The notes under the pieces: model-generated | Told to the model about the DNA's origin: nothing | Databases searched by the model: none | The model's input: only the letters and a program-made list of their open reading frames with translations | Assembly: GCA_016866955.1 (NCBI GenBank) | Contig: VGKT01000002.1 | Span: 16,072-80,071, forward strand | Source of the DNA: Candidatus Pacearchaeota archaeon | GTDB taxonomy: Archaea > Nanobdellota > Nanobdellia > Pacearchaeales > GW2011-AR1 | DNA: 64,000 bases | Direction: 5' to 3' | In this document: piece after piece, positions 13,892 through 63,563 of the stretch | Layout: every line of letters begins with the position of its first letter | Position numbering within the stretch: position 1 is the stretch's first letter | Position numbers and translations under genes: made by a program

Positions 13892-14046
13892 CGGCCCCAG
13901 GAAGAATCGAACTCCCGTTCTCAGGTTGCTTCGTATCGCACCACCGGGGTGATACGTCCTCCAAAAGGAGGATGATGCGTCAAGGAACCGTGGTTCCTTA
14001 CGCTACGCTCCGAAGCCTGATGTTCTATCCACTAAACTATGGGGCC
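13892..14046 (-). tRNA. tRNA-Arg (anticodon TCG) with a roughly 82-nt intron in the anticodon loop
   Basis: Hand-folded. Acceptor GGCCCCA/TGGGGCC, D-arm GTTT-AGTGGATA-GAAC, anticodon stem TCAGG/CCTGA, loop CTTCGG^intron^A, T-arm GGGAG-TTCGATT-CTTCC. Intron placed at the canonical 37/38 position. Confidence 0.55.
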
Positions 14047-47751: not shown

Positions 47752-48095
47752 TGACTGCTGAATATATACGTTTTGCTCAGCAGGAGGCAGTACAAGGACA
47801 AAAGAATTTACTTGAATCACAAGTACATCTGCTTCAAGGATTAAAAAAATTCAAAGCTTATCGTCTCCTTCGTGCAGAAGAACTTCGTCTCAAAATTCAA
47901 TTAAAACAACAATATGATGCACTTATTGAACAGCTTGACATTCTAAATCGTATTCTCCCTCAAACTGAATTCAAACCAACTCCTCAACCAAAACAAATAA
48001 CAAAACAAGAACGAGAAGTATCTCCAACAATACAAGAACACTCTCTCGAAGATGAACTTGCAGCAATTCAACGTAAACTACAATCGCTCAAATAA
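47751..48095 (+). CDS. hypothetical coiled-coil protein
   Basis: ATGA overlap with the previous gene. Predicted coiled coil. Confidence 0.4.
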   Translation: MTAEYIRFAQQEAVQGQKNLLESQVHLLQGLKKFKAYRLLRAEELRLKIQLKQQYDALIEQLDILNRILPQTEFKPTPQPKQITKQEREVSPTIQEHSLEDELAAIQRKLQSLK

Positions 48096-48140
48096 GTAAG
48101 CTAACAAAAACTTCTTATACCACTTCCGCTCAAAAGCAGT

Positions 48141-50291
48141 ATGATAGCCACTCGTCAAGACCTCATTAAGAAATACTTAGACTATTTCAAAATTAAAAAG
48201 CACCATCACCTTCCTTCAGCCTCTCTTATTCCCGAAAACGATCCAACCGTTCTTTTTACCACGGCAGGTATGCACCCTCTTGTCCCTTATTTGCTCGGTC
48301 AAAAACACCCTTTGGGAAAACGATTGGTAAGTGTCCAAAAATGCATTCGTACAGGAGATATTGATGAAGTAGGGGATACTACGCACCACACCTTCTTTGA
48401 AATGTTAGGAAATTGGTCATTAGGAGATTATTTTAAAAAAGAAGCAATTGAATTCAGCTTTGAGTTCTTAACACACGTTCTTGCAATTCCAAAAGAAAAA
48501 ATCGCAATTTCTTGTTTTATTGGTGACCAAGATGCCCCACGAGATAAAGAATCAGAACAATATTGGAAAGAGAAAGGAATCCCTTCAGAACGTATTGCCT
48601 TTCTCCCAAAAAAGAACAATTGGTGGGGTCCTGCTGGAGAAACAGGCCCTTGTGGACCAGATACTGAAATGTTTTACTGGAAACCTGCAAGCCCTGCCCC
48701 CAAGACTTTCAATCCGCATGATGAAAACTGGGTAGAAATCTGGAATGATGTATTCATGCAATATGAAAAAACAAAGATAAAGGCGATATTAGCAGATGCA
48801 GTTAACGCCCTTATAGATAAAGAAAAAGGGCTTAATAAAGAGCTGGCAGAAATAATATTAAATACAAACAAAAGAATAATAGTAGTTACAAATGCAAACC
48901 CTCAAGAGATTAAATCAAAACTGCAAAATTATAATTTCGAAGTCTTTAGTCTGTTAAAAGAGCCCGATAAATCAAATCCAAAGTACTTCAAAGAGCTTTT
49001 AGAAAAATATAATCTATCTCCACATGAAGTTATCTATTTTGATCATAAAGAAGAAAATGTCAAATCAGCAAGCCAAAATAATATTAATTCAATGCTGTAT
49101 AAAAGCAATGCTCAAGTTAAAGAATTTATTGATAATACTTCGGGAAATTATATTTCCTTAAAACAACAAAATGTAGATACCGGAATGGGAGTAGAACGTA
49201 CCCTTGCCGTTCTCCAAGGATATGAAGACAATTACCTCACAAGCATATTCCAACCACTTATCAAAGAAATAGAAAAGCTCAGCACTAAAACATATGGAAA
49301 AAACAAAGAAGAAACCAGAGGAATGCGAATCATAGCCGACCATATTCGTGCGGCAACATTCATCATAGGAGATAATCGAGGAGTAAAACCAAGCAACATT
49401 GGACAAGGATATGTTGTTCGAAGACTCATTCGTCGAGCAATACGATATATGAAACAACTAGGCATCTCTCCAGGAAATATACCTGCATTAGTAAAAAAAA
49501 TCATCCCTCTTTATTCTGATTATCAAGAACTCCACACCAATAAGGCATTTATTCTCCAACAACTTGAAGAAGAAGAAACAAAATTCAACAAAACCCTCGA
49601 ATCAGGTATCAAAAAGTTTAACGAATTAGCAAAAATGCACAAACAGATCATTCCAGGAAACGATGCTTTCCTCCTCTTCCAATCATATGGCTTCCCTATT
49701 GAAATGACTCAAGAACTTGCCCAAGAACAAGGAATAAAGATAGATCTTGAAGGATATAACACAGAATTTCAAAAACATCAAGATCTCTCACGTACCTCTT
49801 CAGCAGGTATGTTCAAATCAGGACTTGCAGATGATAGTCAAGCAACACGCAAACTCCATACTGCAACGCACTTACTCAATGAAGCACTACGTCAAGTACT
49901 TGATAAAGAGATTAAACAAAGAGGAAGCAACATTACTCCTGAACGTTTACGATTTGATTTTAATTTCCCACGTAAACTTACCGAAGAGGAAGTAAAAAAA
50001 ATAGAACAATGGGTTAATCTAAAAATACAAGCTTCGCTTTCCATCCATCGAGAAGAAGTCCCACTTGCAGATGCAGTAAGTTCAGGAGCCCAACATGAAT
50101 TCGGAGGAAAATACCCTGAAATGGTTTCCGTATATACTGTAATTGATCCTTCAGAATCACGAGGATGGAGCTCAAAAGAATTTTGTACAGGACCTCATGT
50201 TGCAAATACAAAGGAACTCGGTTCATTTAAGATTCTTAAAGAAGAAGCAGTAGCAGCAGGCATTCGAAGAATTAAAGCAATTGTTGCTTAA
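48141..50291 (+). CDS. alaS: alanyl-tRNA synthetase, compact form with a roughly 140-aa inserted domain
   Basis: FTTAGMHPLVPY, HHTFFEMLGNWSLGDYFK, DTGMGVERT and editing-domain HTATHLL / CTGPHV motifs. Carries an AT-rich insertion between WNDVFMQY and DTGMGVER. Confidence 0.85.
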   Translation: MIATRQDLIKKYLDYFKIKKHHHLPSASLIPENDPTVLFTTAGMHPLVPYLLGQKHPLGKRLVSVQKCIRTGDIDEVGDTTHHTFFEMLGNWSLGDYFKKEAIEFSFEFLTHVLAIPKEKIAISCFIGDQDAPRDKESEQYWKEKGIPSERIAFLPKKNNWWGPAGETGPCGPDTEMFYWKPASPAPKTFNPHDENWVEIWNDVFMQYEKTKIKAILADAVNALIDKEKGLNKELAEIILNTNKRIIVVTNANPQEIKSKLQNYNFEVFSLLKEPDKSNPKYFKELLEKYNLSPHEVIYFDHKEENVKSASQNNINSMLYKSNAQVKEFIDNTSGNYISLKQQNVDTGMGVERTLAVLQGYEDNYLTSIFQPLIKEIEKLSTKTYGKNKEETRGMRIIADHIRAATFIIGDNRGVKPSNIGQGYVVRRLIRRAIRYMKQLGISPGNIPALVKKIIPLYSDYQELHTNKAFILQQLEEEETKFNKTLESGIKKFNELAKMHKQIIPGNDAFLLFQSYGFPIEMTQELAQEQGIKIDLEGYNTEFQKHQDLSRTSSAGMFKSGLADDSQATRKLHTATHLLNEALRQVLDKEIKQRGSNITPERLRFDFNFPRKLTEEEVKKIEQWVNLKIQASLSIHREEVPLADAVSSGAQHEFGGKYPEMVSVYTVIDPSESRGWSSKEFCTGPHVANTKELGSFKILKEEAVAAGIRRIKAIVA

Positions 50292-52234: not shown

Positions 52235-54700
52235 TTACTCAACAAATAACGCAGGTTTCCCCGGCTTTGCCTTCCCCGCTTTACCTTGCGGATCATATTT
52301 CTTCGGATCATTCACTGCAAAAACTCTGATAGGCTTTCCTACTCGCTTGGTCAAAGAGTCAGGAGCATAATTTCCTACTTCTTTCGGCAATACATACACA
52401 TACACCTGCGTTCCTTCTTCCCCAGTCTTTTCCTTCACCAATCGCAACACATTCATAATATCGCTTACCGTCTTCTCCACCGCTTGTTCCACAACATCAA
52501 ACGCAGGATTTATTTTAGAAGTATCTACCTTCGGCCACGATTCTGTAGCAATCAAAGTCTTATTACCAAGTCGCGACCATAATTCTTCACAAACATGAGG
52601 AATAATTGGTGACATACCTAGTAAAAGAGATTCATAAGCTGCTCGTGAAATACTTTCTTTCTCTGAGAGAGACGAAACAAGTTCCATAAAAGAAACAATG
52701 CCTTTATTGAATTCAATAGATTCGTAATTTTTTTCTAATTGTGTTAAAAATGAAGCAATTTTATGATCTACAATAGGATCAGACACTTTTCCAACTTTAT
52801 CAGCAAGTGCAATAAATCGTTTAATAACTTTAAAGGCCCCTTCAATTCCTTTATCGTCCCATTCAATAGCTTTATCTGGACTTGCAACAAACATAATGAA
52901 TAAACGTGCAGTATCAATACCATATTTTGCAGAAATTTCTTCAGCAGTGACCGTATTTCCGTGACTCTTACTCATACGTTCTCCACCTTTATGCACAATA
53001 CCTTGATTAAACAATTTTTGAAATGGTTCATCAAAAGTTACAAGTCCACAATCTCGTAAAAATTTGGTAAAGAAACGAGCATATAAAAGATGTAAAACGG
53101 CATGTTCCATTCCTCCAATATATTGATCTGCAGGCATCCAATAAGCAACTTTCTTAGAATCAAAGAGGGCTTTTTTATTGTCAGGATCACAATATCGTAA
53201 ATAATACCAACTCGAGTCAATAAAAGTAGCCATCGTATCAGTTTCACGCTTTGCTTTTCCTTTACAAGTAGGACAAGAAGTTTCAACAAACGCTTTACAA
53301 GTAACTAAGGGGTTGCCTTTACCAGTAAAAGTAACATCAACTGGAAGCTGTACTGGAAGTTGTTTCTCAGGAACGGGCACAATTCCACATTTCGAACAAT
53401 ATACTATCGGAATAGGAGTGCCCCAGTAGCGCTGACGAGAAACAAGCCAATCGCGCAAACGATATTCAGTGGTAATCGCTCCTTTTTTGAGTTTGACAAG
53501 ATGAGCAGAGATAACTTTTTTGGCTTTTTCATTTTCTAAACCATCAAAAGTATCTGAATCAATCAAAATTCCTCTACCAATATAAGCTTCTTTCATTTTT
53601 TTATCAATTTTTCCATTTACTTGACAAATAACTTGTTTGATAGGCAAGGCATATTTTTGTGCAAAATCAAAATCTCGTTGATCATGCGCAGGAACACCCA
53701 TAACAAAGCCCGTACCATAATCTGCAACAACAAAATTAGAAGCAAAGATAGGTAAACGCTCACCAGTAAGCGGATGAAGTGCAAAAAGACCCGTATTAAA
53801 CCCTTCTTTCTCTTTAGTAACATCTAATTTTTCAGAAGCAGAAACAGTTTGTAAAAAAGAACGATATGCTTTCTCTTGAGGAGTCCCTTTCAATAAATCA
53901 CCTAAAAGAGGATGACGAGCAGCACATGTTAAAAAAGTAACCCCATAAAGAGTATCGGGACGAGTAGTGAACACTTCGAAGGATTGTTTTGTTCCTTCTA
54001 AGATAAACGTAACTTTTGTTCCTTCACTCTTTCCAATCCAATTGCGTTGCATTTCTTTAACTCGCTCATTCCATTGTAAAGTATCTAAACCTGAAAGTAA
54101 TTCATCAGCATAAGCGGTAATTTTGAAAAACCATTGTTCCAATTGTTCGAGAGAGACAGGTTGATCACAACGCCAACAGTTTCCATCAATAACTTCTTCA
54201 TTCGCCAAAGTAGTAGCGCAGGTTTTACAATAATTAACTGGTGCTTTCTTACGGTAGGCAATACCTTTTTCAAGCATTTTTAAGAAAATCCATTGATTCC
54301 AACGATAGTAATCAGGAAGATGTGTAGAAACTTCACGATCCCAATCATAACTTAAGCCTAATTCTTTCATAAGTTTTCGAATAGTAGCGATAGCATCATT
54401 AGTATAGGTTGCAGGATGACTCTTGGCTTTAATTGCCGCATTTTCAGCAGGTAATCCAAATGCGTCAAAACCCATAGGATACAAGACATTCTTACCTTGC
54501 ATACGTTTAAAGCGAGCAATAATATCCCCAATAGAATAACACTTAACATGCCCCATATGCAAGTAGCTTGCGGAAGGATAAGGAAACATTTCTAAACAAT
54601 AAAATTTATCCTTTTTCCCTTCTTTTGCTTTAAAGGCTCCTTGTTTTTCCCATTCCTTTTGCCACTTTTGCTCTATTTTCTTAAAATCAAAATCAGCCAT
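52235..54700 (-). CDS. leuS: leucyl-tRNA synthetase
   Basis: HMGH motif (PYPSASYLHMGHVKCY), KMSKS as RMSKSHGN, and zinc-knuckle cysteines. Confidence 0.9.
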   Translation of the reverse strand: MADFDFKKIEQKWQKEWEKQGAFKAKEGKKDKFYCLEMFPYPSASYLHMGHVKCYSIGDIIARFKRMQGKNVLYPMGFDAFGLPAENAAIKAKSHPATYTNDAIATIRKLMKELGLSYDWDREVSTHLPDYYRWNQWIFLKMLEKGIAYRKKAPVNYCKTCATTLANEEVIDGNCWRCDQPVSLEQLEQWFFKITAYADELLSGLDTLQWNERVKEMQRNWIGKSEGTKVTFILEGTKQSFEVFTTRPDTLYGVTFLTCAARHPLLGDLLKGTPQEKAYRSFLQTVSASEKLDVTKEKEGFNTGLFALHPLTGERLPIFASNFVVADYGTGFVMGVPAHDQRDFDFAQKYALPIKQVICQVNGKIDKKMKEAYIGRGILIDSDTFDGLENEKAKKVISAHLVKLKKGAITTEYRLRDWLVSRQRYWGTPIPIVYCSKCGIVPVPEKQLPVQLPVDVTFTGKGNPLVTCKAFVETSCPTCKGKAKRETDTMATFIDSSWYYLRYCDPDNKKALFDSKKVAYWMPADQYIGGMEHAVLHLLYARFFTKFLRDCGLVTFDEPFQKLFNQGIVHKGGERMSKSHGNTVTAEEISAKYGIDTARLFIMFVASPDKAIEWDDKGIEGAFKVIKRFIALADKVGKVSDPIVDHKIASFLTQLEKNYESIEFNKGIVSFMELVSSLSEKESISRAAYESLLLGMSPIIPHVCEELWSRLGNKTLIATESWPKVDTSKINPAFDVVEQAVEKTVSDIMNVLRLVKEKTGEEGTQVYVYVLPKEVGNYAPDSLTKRVGKPIRVFAVNDPKKYDPQGKAGKAKPGKPALFVE

Positions 54701-58038: not shown

Positions 58039-58110
58039 TGGCTGTAGAGAGAATCGAACTCTCGACCCCTGCCTTATGAGAGCAGTGCTCTACCACTGAG
58101 CTACACAGCC
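58039..58110 (-). tRNA. tRNA-Met (anticodon CAT), elongator type
   Basis: Hand-folded. GGCTGTG-TA-GCTC-AGTGGT-AGAGC-A-CTGCT-CTCATAA-GGCAG-GGGTC-GAGAG-TTCGATT-CTCTC-TACAGCC-A. Confidence 0.85.
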
Positions 58111-59606: not shown

Positions 59607-59677
59607 GGGCCCATAGTTCAGTGGTAGAACGCCTGGCTGGCAGTCAGGAGGTGTGAGTTCGATTCTCGCTGGGTCCA
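59607..59677 (+). tRNA. tRNA-Ala (anticodon GGC)
   Basis: Hand-folded. G3:U70 pair in the acceptor stem (GGGCCCA / TGGGTCC). Anticodon loop CTGGCAG. Confidence 0.85.
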
Positions 59678-63359: not shown

Positions 63360-63432
63360 AAGCGCACGCCCGGATTTGAACCGGGGAAAAGTCGCTCTGC
63401 AGGCGACCGCAGTAACCGCTGTGCCACGTGCG
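63360..63432 (-). tRNA. tRNA-Cys (anticodon GCA)
   Basis: Hand-folded. GCGCACG acceptor, anticodon stem-loop GTCGC-CTGCAGA-GCGAC, T-arm CCCGG-TTCAAAT-CCGGG, U73 discriminator. Confidence 0.75.
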
Positions 63433-63488
63433 CATCTCTGTTTGGTGTTTCTGAGTTCTTTTAAAGATATGGTTAAAGAAGATACATA

Positions 63489-63563
63489 CGCTCCCGACAG
63501 GATTTGAACCTGCGACCTGCGGATTAGAAGTCCGCTGCTCTATCCAAGCTGAGCTACGGGAGC
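63489..63563 (-). tRNA. tRNA-Arg (anticodon TCT)
   Basis: Hand-folded. GCTCCCG-TA-GCTC-AGCTTGGATA-GAGC-A-GCGGA-CTTCTAA-TCCGC-AGGTC-GCAGG-TTCAAAT-CCTGT-CGGGAGC-G. Confidence 0.85.

Follow-up and report, generated by a model that had tools for sequence, protein, structure and literature searches.

The alanyl-tRNA synthetase (AlaRS) gene of a Pacearchaeota archaeon carries, inside its catalytic domain, a second protein domain with the predicted haloacid dehalogenase (HAD)-superfamily fold. The gene, alaS, occupies positions 48141..50291 (+) of the 64,000-nucleotide stretch of contig VGKT01000002.1 analyzed here (the window) and forms an open reading frame (ORF) of 716 amino acids (aa) for a short bacterial-type AlaRS. 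Its nested, cap-less domain ("mini-HAD", subtype A of two; aa 216–336, 48786..49148, +) was delimited and characterized by the gap in insert-less orthologs, the profile TIGR01509, an AlphaFold2 (AF2) model, Foldseek comparison, and the ratio of nonsynonymous to synonymous divergence (dN/dS). Together, the sequence comparisons and predicted structures tip the balance slightly in favor of the mini-HAD being an autonomous accessory phosphohydrolase carried by AlaRS, with active-site roles for Asp219, Lys277, and Asp301-His302 and, probably, a small phosphorylated or nucleotide-type substrate.

The host protein matched NF002436, the short-AlaRS family, along its whole length (796 bits, cutoff 529) and TIGR00344 (579 bits, cutoff 457), in both cases with a match split into pieces; among Pfam models, PF07973 was matched and PF01411 fell on two separate stretches, which bears out the preliminary description of an AlaRS catalytic domain interrupted in frame. 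In the short-AlaRS model, profile position 208 was followed directly by query residue 327. An alignment with AlaRS of A. aeolicus (structure 1RIQ, E 4.6e-92), a check that the preliminary description had proposed, likewise came in two stretches, pairing query residues 7–211 with 1RIQ 7–204 and query residues 337–551 with 1RIQ 209–426, so that the four residues 205–208 of a hairpin turn are replaced by ~125 residues in the window AlaRS. The boundaries given above (121 aa) derive from alignment to the insert-less ortholog P0006, and depending on the alignment the extra piece measures 121–125 aa, in place of a 2–4-residue β-hairpin tip. An insert had been correctly recognized beforehand, yet its size had been overestimated at ~140 aa; the suspected surface-loop location agrees with a surface hairpin of the catalytic domain that links the WNDVFMQY strand to the DTGMG strand of motif 3. 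The spacer from FMQY to NVDTGMG comprises 135 residues in the window, 13–14 in 68 insert-less relatives (the dozen or so anticipated for typical AlaRS), and 135–146 in 11 insert-bearing loci; it is all-or-none, no value between the two ranges occurring among the loci fetched.

Apart from the insert, the synthetase is fully equipped. The N-terminal part of the aminoacylation domain (aa 1–215, 48141..48785, +) aligns to 1RIQ 7–204 and ends in the strand NWVEIWNDVFMQYEKT, which contains the invariant Asn202 and Val204 and corresponds to AF2 strand 197–212. The hairpin return strand with class II motif 3 (YISLKQQNVDTGMG; 49149..49190, +; AF2 strand 335–350) aligns from 1RIQ residue 209 and contains the invariant Asp346, Gly348, and Gly350. 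The zinc motifs of the editing domain, HTATH (aa 573–577) and CTGPH (aa 682–686), span 49857..50198 (+) and coincide with invariant columns, with PF07973 (aa 662–711), and with the AlaXM model (aa 570–713). All AlaRS catalytic invariants (R70, N202, V204, D346, G348, G350, E352, and R353) and the editing-site invariants H573/H577 and C682/H686 are intact. The protein thus has aminoacylation, tRNA-recognition, and editing domains and lacks a C-Ala domain. It is a full-length member of the short AlaRS of DPANN archaea and some bacteria (NF002436, ~595 aa), whose members have 13–14 residues where the window AlaRS has 135. In the full-length AF2 model (mean predicted local distance difference test (pLDDT) 84.1, predicted template modeling score (pTM) 0.66, junction confidence 81–93), strand 197–212 passes almost directly into the HAD strand 215–219, and the last HAD helix (323–332) leads directly into strand 335–350. 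The model thereby places the nested domain, via short linkers, on the tip of a ribbon of two strands that form the alanine pocket at their inner ends; measured along these strands, the attachment point lies 8–9 residues away from the residues of the pocket.

The insert had been read as resembling the C-terminal half of a HAD phosphatase, and its HAD character is well supported, although it comprises a complete core rather than half of one. In isolation, it matched TIGR01509 (HAD-IA variant 3) with 41.3 bits (E 1.6e-10; cutoff 29.4 bits), and with 38.7 bits as part of the full protein; the match spans profile positions 45–153, without the cap region. PF00702 was only marginally over its cutoff (26.9 vs 26.4 bits). 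The AF2 model, built from 38 homologous inserts (pLDDT 86.4, pTM 0.78), predicts five β-α units that make up a Rossmannoid core of five strands, a small flap hairpin following strand 1, and no cap domain. Asp219 and Thr250 are only ~30 residues apart, a distance taken up by the flap hairpin and one core helix, which leaves no α-helical C1 cap. All top Foldseek matches in the Protein Data Bank (PDB) were HAD proteins, many at probability 1.00; the best were Escherichia coli YihX and soluble epoxide hydrolase (its phosphatase domain), and others included 2pr7 (template modeling score 0.72 over the whole length) and MDP-1. A viral structure library returned generic HAD matches only.

All four HAD motifs could be located, and their conservation was counted over 115 family members comprising AlaRS-nested, free-standing, and other-host representatives. 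Motif I (ILADAVNAL) contains the nucleophile-position Asp219 (codon 48795..48797, +), which is an Asp in 114/115 members and invariant in all 38 aligned inserts. The position two residues downstream (Asp+2 in canonical DxD motifs) is Val here, mostly V/I/M elsewhere, and never Asp in the family counts shown. The preliminary description had rightly noted the absence of a clean DxD; what it missed was motif I itself. Motif II (IIVVTNA) comprises Thr250-Asn251 (48888..48893, +), with Thr/Ser in ~75% and Asn in ~90% of the family and Val in AlaRS subtype B. The motif III Lys277 (48969..48971, +) is conserved in 114/115 members and aligns to the YihX motif III Lys. Motif IV (YFDHKEEN; Asp301-His302...Asn306, 49041..49058, +) has D/E at 301 in 114/115 members and His302 in 96%. 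The sole member without D/E at 301 is P0070, an AlaRS of 713 aa with a highly divergent insert at the same site that keeps the motif I Asp and has lost the motif III Lys and the motif IV DH (VSFGNTN). This insert may be a decaying copy.

The best match in both sequence and fold was YihX (HAD4), an α-D-glucose-1-phosphatase of the same HAD-IA variant 3 (TIGR01509) with the same Rossmannoid core; the phosphatase domain at the N-terminus of soluble epoxide hydrolase is related to this match. Like the insert, YihX has a motif I without Asp+2 and with Asn at +3 (FDLGNV, with Gly at +2, vs ADAVNA), and the same motif III Lys. The HMMER alignment pairs YFDHKEENIKSA with YihX FFDDNADNIEGA, bringing YihX motif IV FFDDNADN into register with YFDHKEEN and aligning His302 to the second Asp of the YihX "DD", so that DD in YihX corresponds to DH in the insert. 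YihX differs in being a stand-alone enzyme, in being only 18–19% identical, and in having a ~70-aa α-helical C1 cap between motifs I and II where the insert has only a short flap. The structural models and motif alignments therefore describe the insert as a complete cap-less HAD core with a YihX-like D-x-x-N motif I. YihX is active on glucose-1-phosphate, with an apparent kcat of ~10 per second (PMC4251788). Since it carries Gly at +2, Asp+2 is not universal in subfamily IA-v3, and since it is active nonetheless, an absent DxD does not by itself make a protein inactive. In size and lack of a cap, the insert resembles the cap-less (C0) HADs, such as MDP-1, KdsC-type phosphatases, and the uncharacterized 137-aa C. 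glutamicum protein 2pr7, at identities of 9–14% (2pr7, MDP-1, YrbI) and up to 18% (KDN9P phosphatase). These proteins, however, carry a canonical DxD motif I and an acidic motif IV, and are not known to be nested in other proteins.

Several lines of evidence attest to the authenticity of the insert. Comparing the window AlaRS with its 120 best database matches (121 sequences in total), we found a same-site insert of 119–129 aa in 40/121 (39 relatives and the window) from NCBI, JGI, ENA, and Logan sources, and a 97%-identical allele was found on six independent contigs. Against this allele, dN/dS was 0.072 for the insert and 0.059 for the AlaRS core, indicating that the nested domain is translated and that purifying selection acts on it as strongly as on the core. 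No Hint or intein Pfam match was found in the alaS product, in line with the earlier statement that intein signatures are lacking. The junctions read K|I ... N|Y in the window and other residues elsewhere, without the intein nucleophiles (Cys/Ser/Thr, His-Asn|Cys/Ser/Thr). Terminal inverted repeats and target-site duplications were looked for at the junctions, and no repeat pair brackets 48786 and 49148; nor did the insert show any nuclease, splicing, or transposition signature. Misassembly, intein, transposon, and intron were thus rejected on the strength of the 39 further clusters, the six contigs, the dN/dS of 0.07, the maintained frame, and the lack of Hint domains and repeats.

The AT-richness pointed out in the preliminary description is real: GC content is 0.281 in the insert (the ~28% given there) vs 0.384 in the rest of alaS. 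Its reading as a sign of recent foreign DNA is not. GC at third codon positions (GC3) is 0.207 in the insert, against a genome coding mean of 0.244 ± 0.068, and is lower still in 34% of 363-nt coding windows. The deficit lies in codon positions 1 and 2 and reflects a Lys/Asn/Ile/Glu-rich composition; the low GC is thus explained by amino-acid composition, and recent foreign origin on the ground of AT-richness was ruled out. The alternative offered alongside, a new accessory domain, is the better of the two earlier readings. The net charge of the AlaRS inserts is about −0.5, and their near neutrality leaves an RNA-binding adaptation unsupported. The PADLOC defense-system library gave zero matches for the mini-HAD domain.

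Among AlaRS relatives, the insert is patchily distributed and occurs as two subtypes that are ~37% identical: A, that of the window (...VDAINCL...VVTNA...), and B (...VDGMxCLYD...VVNxF...). With subtypes this divergent, the insert is old in the clade, not recent. The comparison of spacing in related AlaRS, suggested beforehand, gave a mixed outcome, as 40/121 AlaRS share the long spacing but the very closest orthologs lack it: in core identity, the window AlaRS is 84% identical to the insert-less P0006 and 82% to the insert-less P0007, and only 73% to the next insert-bearing protein. P0006 and the insert-less L013 (Pacearchaeota Baikal-deep-G141, species representative) lie in the synteny Rhomboid-TFIIEα-orf165-orf114-alaS-BacA(-LeuRS), as does the window alaS, and the insert-bearing L006, L008, and L009 share this neighborhood. 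These alaS genes are therefore positional orthologs. Paralogy, with two alaS per genome differing in the insert, was ruled out for the key comparisons by the syntenic slot of P0006 and L013, and no assembly with two alaS loci was found among the 80 listed in a pattern-based, non-exhaustive scan. Since positional orthologs at 84% core identity do without it, the insert is dispensable for AlaRS as such.

Insert-bearing and insert-less proteins were intermingled in neighbor-joining (NJ) trees of the AlaRS core. Mixed clades were recovered with bootstrap values of 100% (the window AlaRS with P0001, P0006, and P0007; P0017 with P0090), 96% (P0009, P0093, and P0064), 90% (P0010 and P0038), and 84% (P0016 and P0043), and one shallow group holds subtype-A, subtype-B, and empty alleles (68% support, core identity 77–84%). 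The insert state changes at least 19 times on the core tree (16–22 over bootstraps; random expectation 34), and core and insert identities are uncorrelated over insert-bearing pairs (Spearman 0.02). These patterns indicate that the insert was gained or lost many times, with a history decoupled from that of its host gene. A separate variation in the pocket strand and motif 3, EIGN for EIWN and DFGGG for DTGMG (window aa 200–201 and 346–350), occurs in P0004, P0032, P0037, P0117, and others; it is found in insert-bearing and insert-less AlaRS alike and is scattered on the core tree.

The sister strain L001 provides a closer view of this history. Most of the ~13 kb shared locus is 0–1% divergent from the window and the adjacent alaS flanks 2.6–3.4%, whereas mismatch positions define a tract of high divergence (12.4%; 48785..49155, +) that coincides with the insert. 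Synonymous divergence (dS) is 0.67 in the insert and 0.12 in the core, about a fivefold difference. The raised dS relative to the flanks points to recombination, and these comparisons make clear that recombination is widespread in this population. Lineages probably exchange the insert's presence, absence, and subtype by homologous recombination via the near-invariant flanks, a scenario that fits the data. A second divergent island was observed at 47970..48400, covering the first 260 nt of alaS and the upstream spacer; it is 10–20% divergent from L001, and its changes in the ORF fall mostly on third codon positions. The LeuRS gene is a mosaic: the window (52235..54700, −) encodes an 821-aa protein with a bacterial-type body (HMGH...WLVSRQRYWGTPIP...KMSKS) and L001 (13201..15903) a 900-aa archaeal-type one, with the first ~19 aa largely identical, the last ~100 aa ~95% identical, and the overall identity ~40%, that of the replaced middle being far lower. 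Upstream of window position ~44520, the alignment to L001 is lost (40–55% mismatches) and gene content differs.

Beyond AlaRS, a profile of the insert retrieved 2143 representatives at E<1e-3 among 1.84 billion, many of them 123–135 aa long and matched end to end, and a profile of the non-AlaRS members retrieved 4557 proteins at E<1e-8, mostly 127–131 aa. The members share a signature of D, no Asp+2, TN, K, and [DE]H. The few whose source is named come from Patescibacteria, Saccharibacteria, Pacebacteria, and Nanoarchaeota. These similarities place the AlaRS insert in a very large family, made up of stand-alone proteins of ~127 aa from Patescibacteria (candidate phyla radiation, CPR) and DPANN archaea. 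The same domain is also nested in, or fused to, further hosts. It occurs in two metagenomic LeuRS proteins together with other nested domains, GNAT and serine hydrolase in P0144 (1318 aa) and NUDIX and Ham1/ITPase in P0177 (1349 aa); these LeuRS proteins (locus L098) thus have several nested enzyme-like domains each. Other hosts are class I aminoacyl-tRNA synthetases (aaRSs) other than LeuRS (P0174, P0178, and P0142, the first two with a co-nested GNAT), a class II aaRS of the D/K/N type (P0179, no other nested domain listed), GyrA (P0180, locus L099, nested), and a VTT membrane protein (P0184). In fusions, the mini-HAD stands at the N-terminus of archaeal uL22 (P0127, P0130) and after a HEPN-like domain (RxxxxH; weak Cas13b HEPN match) in P0126. 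Translation of the P0180 and P0150 loci with table 11 does not give the recorded protein, a sign that these hosts may use an alternative genetic code.

An NJ tree built for the domain unites AlaRS subtypes A and B, places a few stand-alone proteins and the HEPN fusion inside subtype B, and puts the inserts of LeuRS, other aaRSs, and GyrA in a cluster of their own; from this placement it follows that the domain moved between host genes more than once. Stand-alone mini-HAD genes neighbor a NUDIX gene (L092), lie in an island with the order GNAT...Ser_hydrolase-miniHAD-glyoxalase...APH...nucleotidyltransferase (L093), or accompany HAD, HIT, abhydrolase, and NUDIX genes (L096). These neighbors represent the same hydrolase/transferase guild that is co-nested in LeuRS.

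We hypothesize that the mini-HAD acts as a phosphohydrolase, with Asp219 as the presumed nucleophile and Lys277 as the residue expected to hold the phosphoryl group; Asp301 and His302 are predicted to coordinate a metal or serve as acid. The missing Asp+2 would favor substrates with good leaving groups, as for YihX. AlaRS would act as a carrier that ensures co-expression and co-localization of the mini-HAD, leaving aminoacylation unchanged. Small phosphorylated or nucleotide-type by-products are likely substrates because stand-alone members reside in NUDIX/HIT/GNAT/serine-hydrolase islands and the same domains are co-nested in LeuRS. The proposed active site is conserved over nested, free-standing, and other-host members alike (D219 99%, K277 99%, [DE]301 99%, H302 96%). 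A number of observations weigh against this proposal and the history outlined above. The Asp+2 position is hydrophobic, the position of the direct Mg ligand in motif IV is a His, and the motif II Thr is replaced by Val in AlaRS subtype B, so that canonical HAD chemistry may be impaired and the domain may be a binding module instead. The neighborhood evidence comes from four loci, with two further loci uninformative, and the trees are NJ only. The elevated insert dS comes from one strain pair, and as the 5′ end of alaS is also a divergent island, recombination may be general rather than specific to the insert.

Other explanations account for parts of the same evidence. The insert could be a selfish or neutral passenger cassette that brings the cell no benefit, persists in a permissive hairpin of an essential gene, is spread and lost by allele recombination, and is selected only for foldability. 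Such a passenger would explain why the insert is patchy among very close orthologs, why its history is decoupled from that of the host gene with a synonymous coalescence deeper than in the flanks, and why the family is nested in several unrelated essential genes, with inserts of different hosts clustering together and a host range resembling that of inteins. We regard it as unlikely, since polar active-site residues that folding would not need (D219, K277, D/E301, and H302) are 96–99% conserved in nested and free copies alike and insert dN/dS is as low as that of the AlaRS core; moreover, no nuclease, splicing, or transposition signature or terminal repeats were found, and the existence of thousands of free-standing copies in reduced genomes speaks for a role in the cell. 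A related scenario, improbable in our judgment, treats the mini-HAD as a mobile protein-domain cassette of CPR and DPANN that would move between genomes and unrelated essential genes (AlaRS, LeuRS, other aaRSs, GyrA, and uL22) by recombination into permissive conserved loops, and that would be kept in the mature protein as a working enzyme. If true, this would amount to an intein-like population biology without splicing, with a possible role in target-tethered protection or in clean-up at adenylate-forming or toxin-targeted sites.

The position of the insert between two alanine-pocket strands, on short rigid linkers, invites the idea of a helper acting in cis on AlaRS, which would break down pyrophosphate, or wrongly activated Ser/Gly-adenylate, close to the active site, or would make up for the missing C-Ala through contacts with the tRNA. 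Most nested hosts are aaRSs, and a HAD without a general acid, judging from YihX, would suit anhydride-type substrates. Orthologs at 82–87% core identity nevertheless work without the insert, the family also has GyrA, uL22, and a membrane protein among its hosts and most of its members stand alone, the near-neutral charge gives no RNA-binding signature, and the attachment lies 8–9 residues from the pocket residues along the strands; we therefore give this idea little credence. Carriage by typical toxin or antibiotic targets (aaRSs, gyrase, and the ribosome) would be explained if the domain conferred target-tethered immunity, stripping a toxin-installed phosphate or nucleotide from its host protein or destroying an adenylate-mimicking inhibitor. 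Cap-less HADs commonly act on macromolecular substrates, MDP-1 and PNKP-type phosphatases are among the fold matches of the insert, and free-standing copies lie among GNAT, APH, nucleotidyltransferase, and glyoxalase genes, with one fusion to HEPN (P0126). This case is purely circumstantial, however, as the defense-system library gave no match, no cognate toxin is known, and the patchiness can be explained without immunity, which makes it a very improbable account. An artefact or removable element (misassembly, intein, or spliced intron) might be suspected from the local AT-richness and the abrupt break in a conserved domain. Its likelihood is negligible: the same architecture recurs in 39 further protein clusters and on six contigs for the 97%-identical allele; the insert is always in frame with a dN/dS of 0.07, has no Hint domain or intein-type junction residues, and is confidently predicted to fold both alone and in context.

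Placed among known systems, the nested accessory phosphohydrolase proposed here has its closest architectural analogue in the INS domain of bacterial ProRS. INS is a YbaK-like, independently folding α/β domain that lies between motifs 2 and 3 of a class II aaRS, inside the catalytic domain; it occurs in only some lineages and has the stand-alone homologs YbaK and ProXp. The AlaRS insert shares this position between motifs 2 and 3 and the existence of stand-alone homologs; INS differs in having another fold, a proven editing function, another synthetase as host, and another loop, and is fixed in large clades, whereas the AlaRS insert is polymorphic among close relatives. Inteins resemble the insert in being in frame at a conserved site of an essential gene, sporadic, decoupled in history from the host, and present in several essential hosts. 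In contrast to them, the insert lacks a Hint fold, splice-junction residues, and a homing endonuclease, and probably stays in place as a folded domain. A 2026 survey points to aaRSs as preferred hosts for insertions in general (PMC13114784). The literature searched, outside of which most subscription journals fell, contained no account of AlaRS with a HAD domain or of the multi-insert aaRSs described above.

Elsewhere in the window, the tRNA match at 13892..14046 (−) spans 155 nt for a model of 71 nt, and this tRNA gene probably contains an intron. Four other tRNAs lie at 58039–58110, 59607–59677, 63361–63433, and 63489–63563.

In public records, the NCBI and JGI pipelines have labeled three of the insert-bearing AlaRS (P0020, P0077, and P0102) "HAD-IA family hydrolase" or "HAD superfamily hydrolase". 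Misnaming as "HAD-IA family hydrolase" can make alaS look missing from genome annotations. In aaRSs, a nested domain is usually a sign of an additional function, for example editing or regulation. The effect of the AlaRS insert is open to testing by direct comparison, since there are close orthologs of both kinds, insert-bearing and insert-less. The insert also exposes a large, uncharacterized HAD-like family of ~127 aa, whose named members found so far all come from ultra-small symbionts (Patescibacteria and DPANN). This family, which has the unusual signature D...K...[DE]H without Asp+2, recurs in several translation and replication proteins, alongside inserts of the GNAT, NUDIX, Ham1, and serine-hydrolase types. 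The finding thus bears on how accessory enzymes are packaged in reduced genomes and on how recombination reshapes essential genes there.

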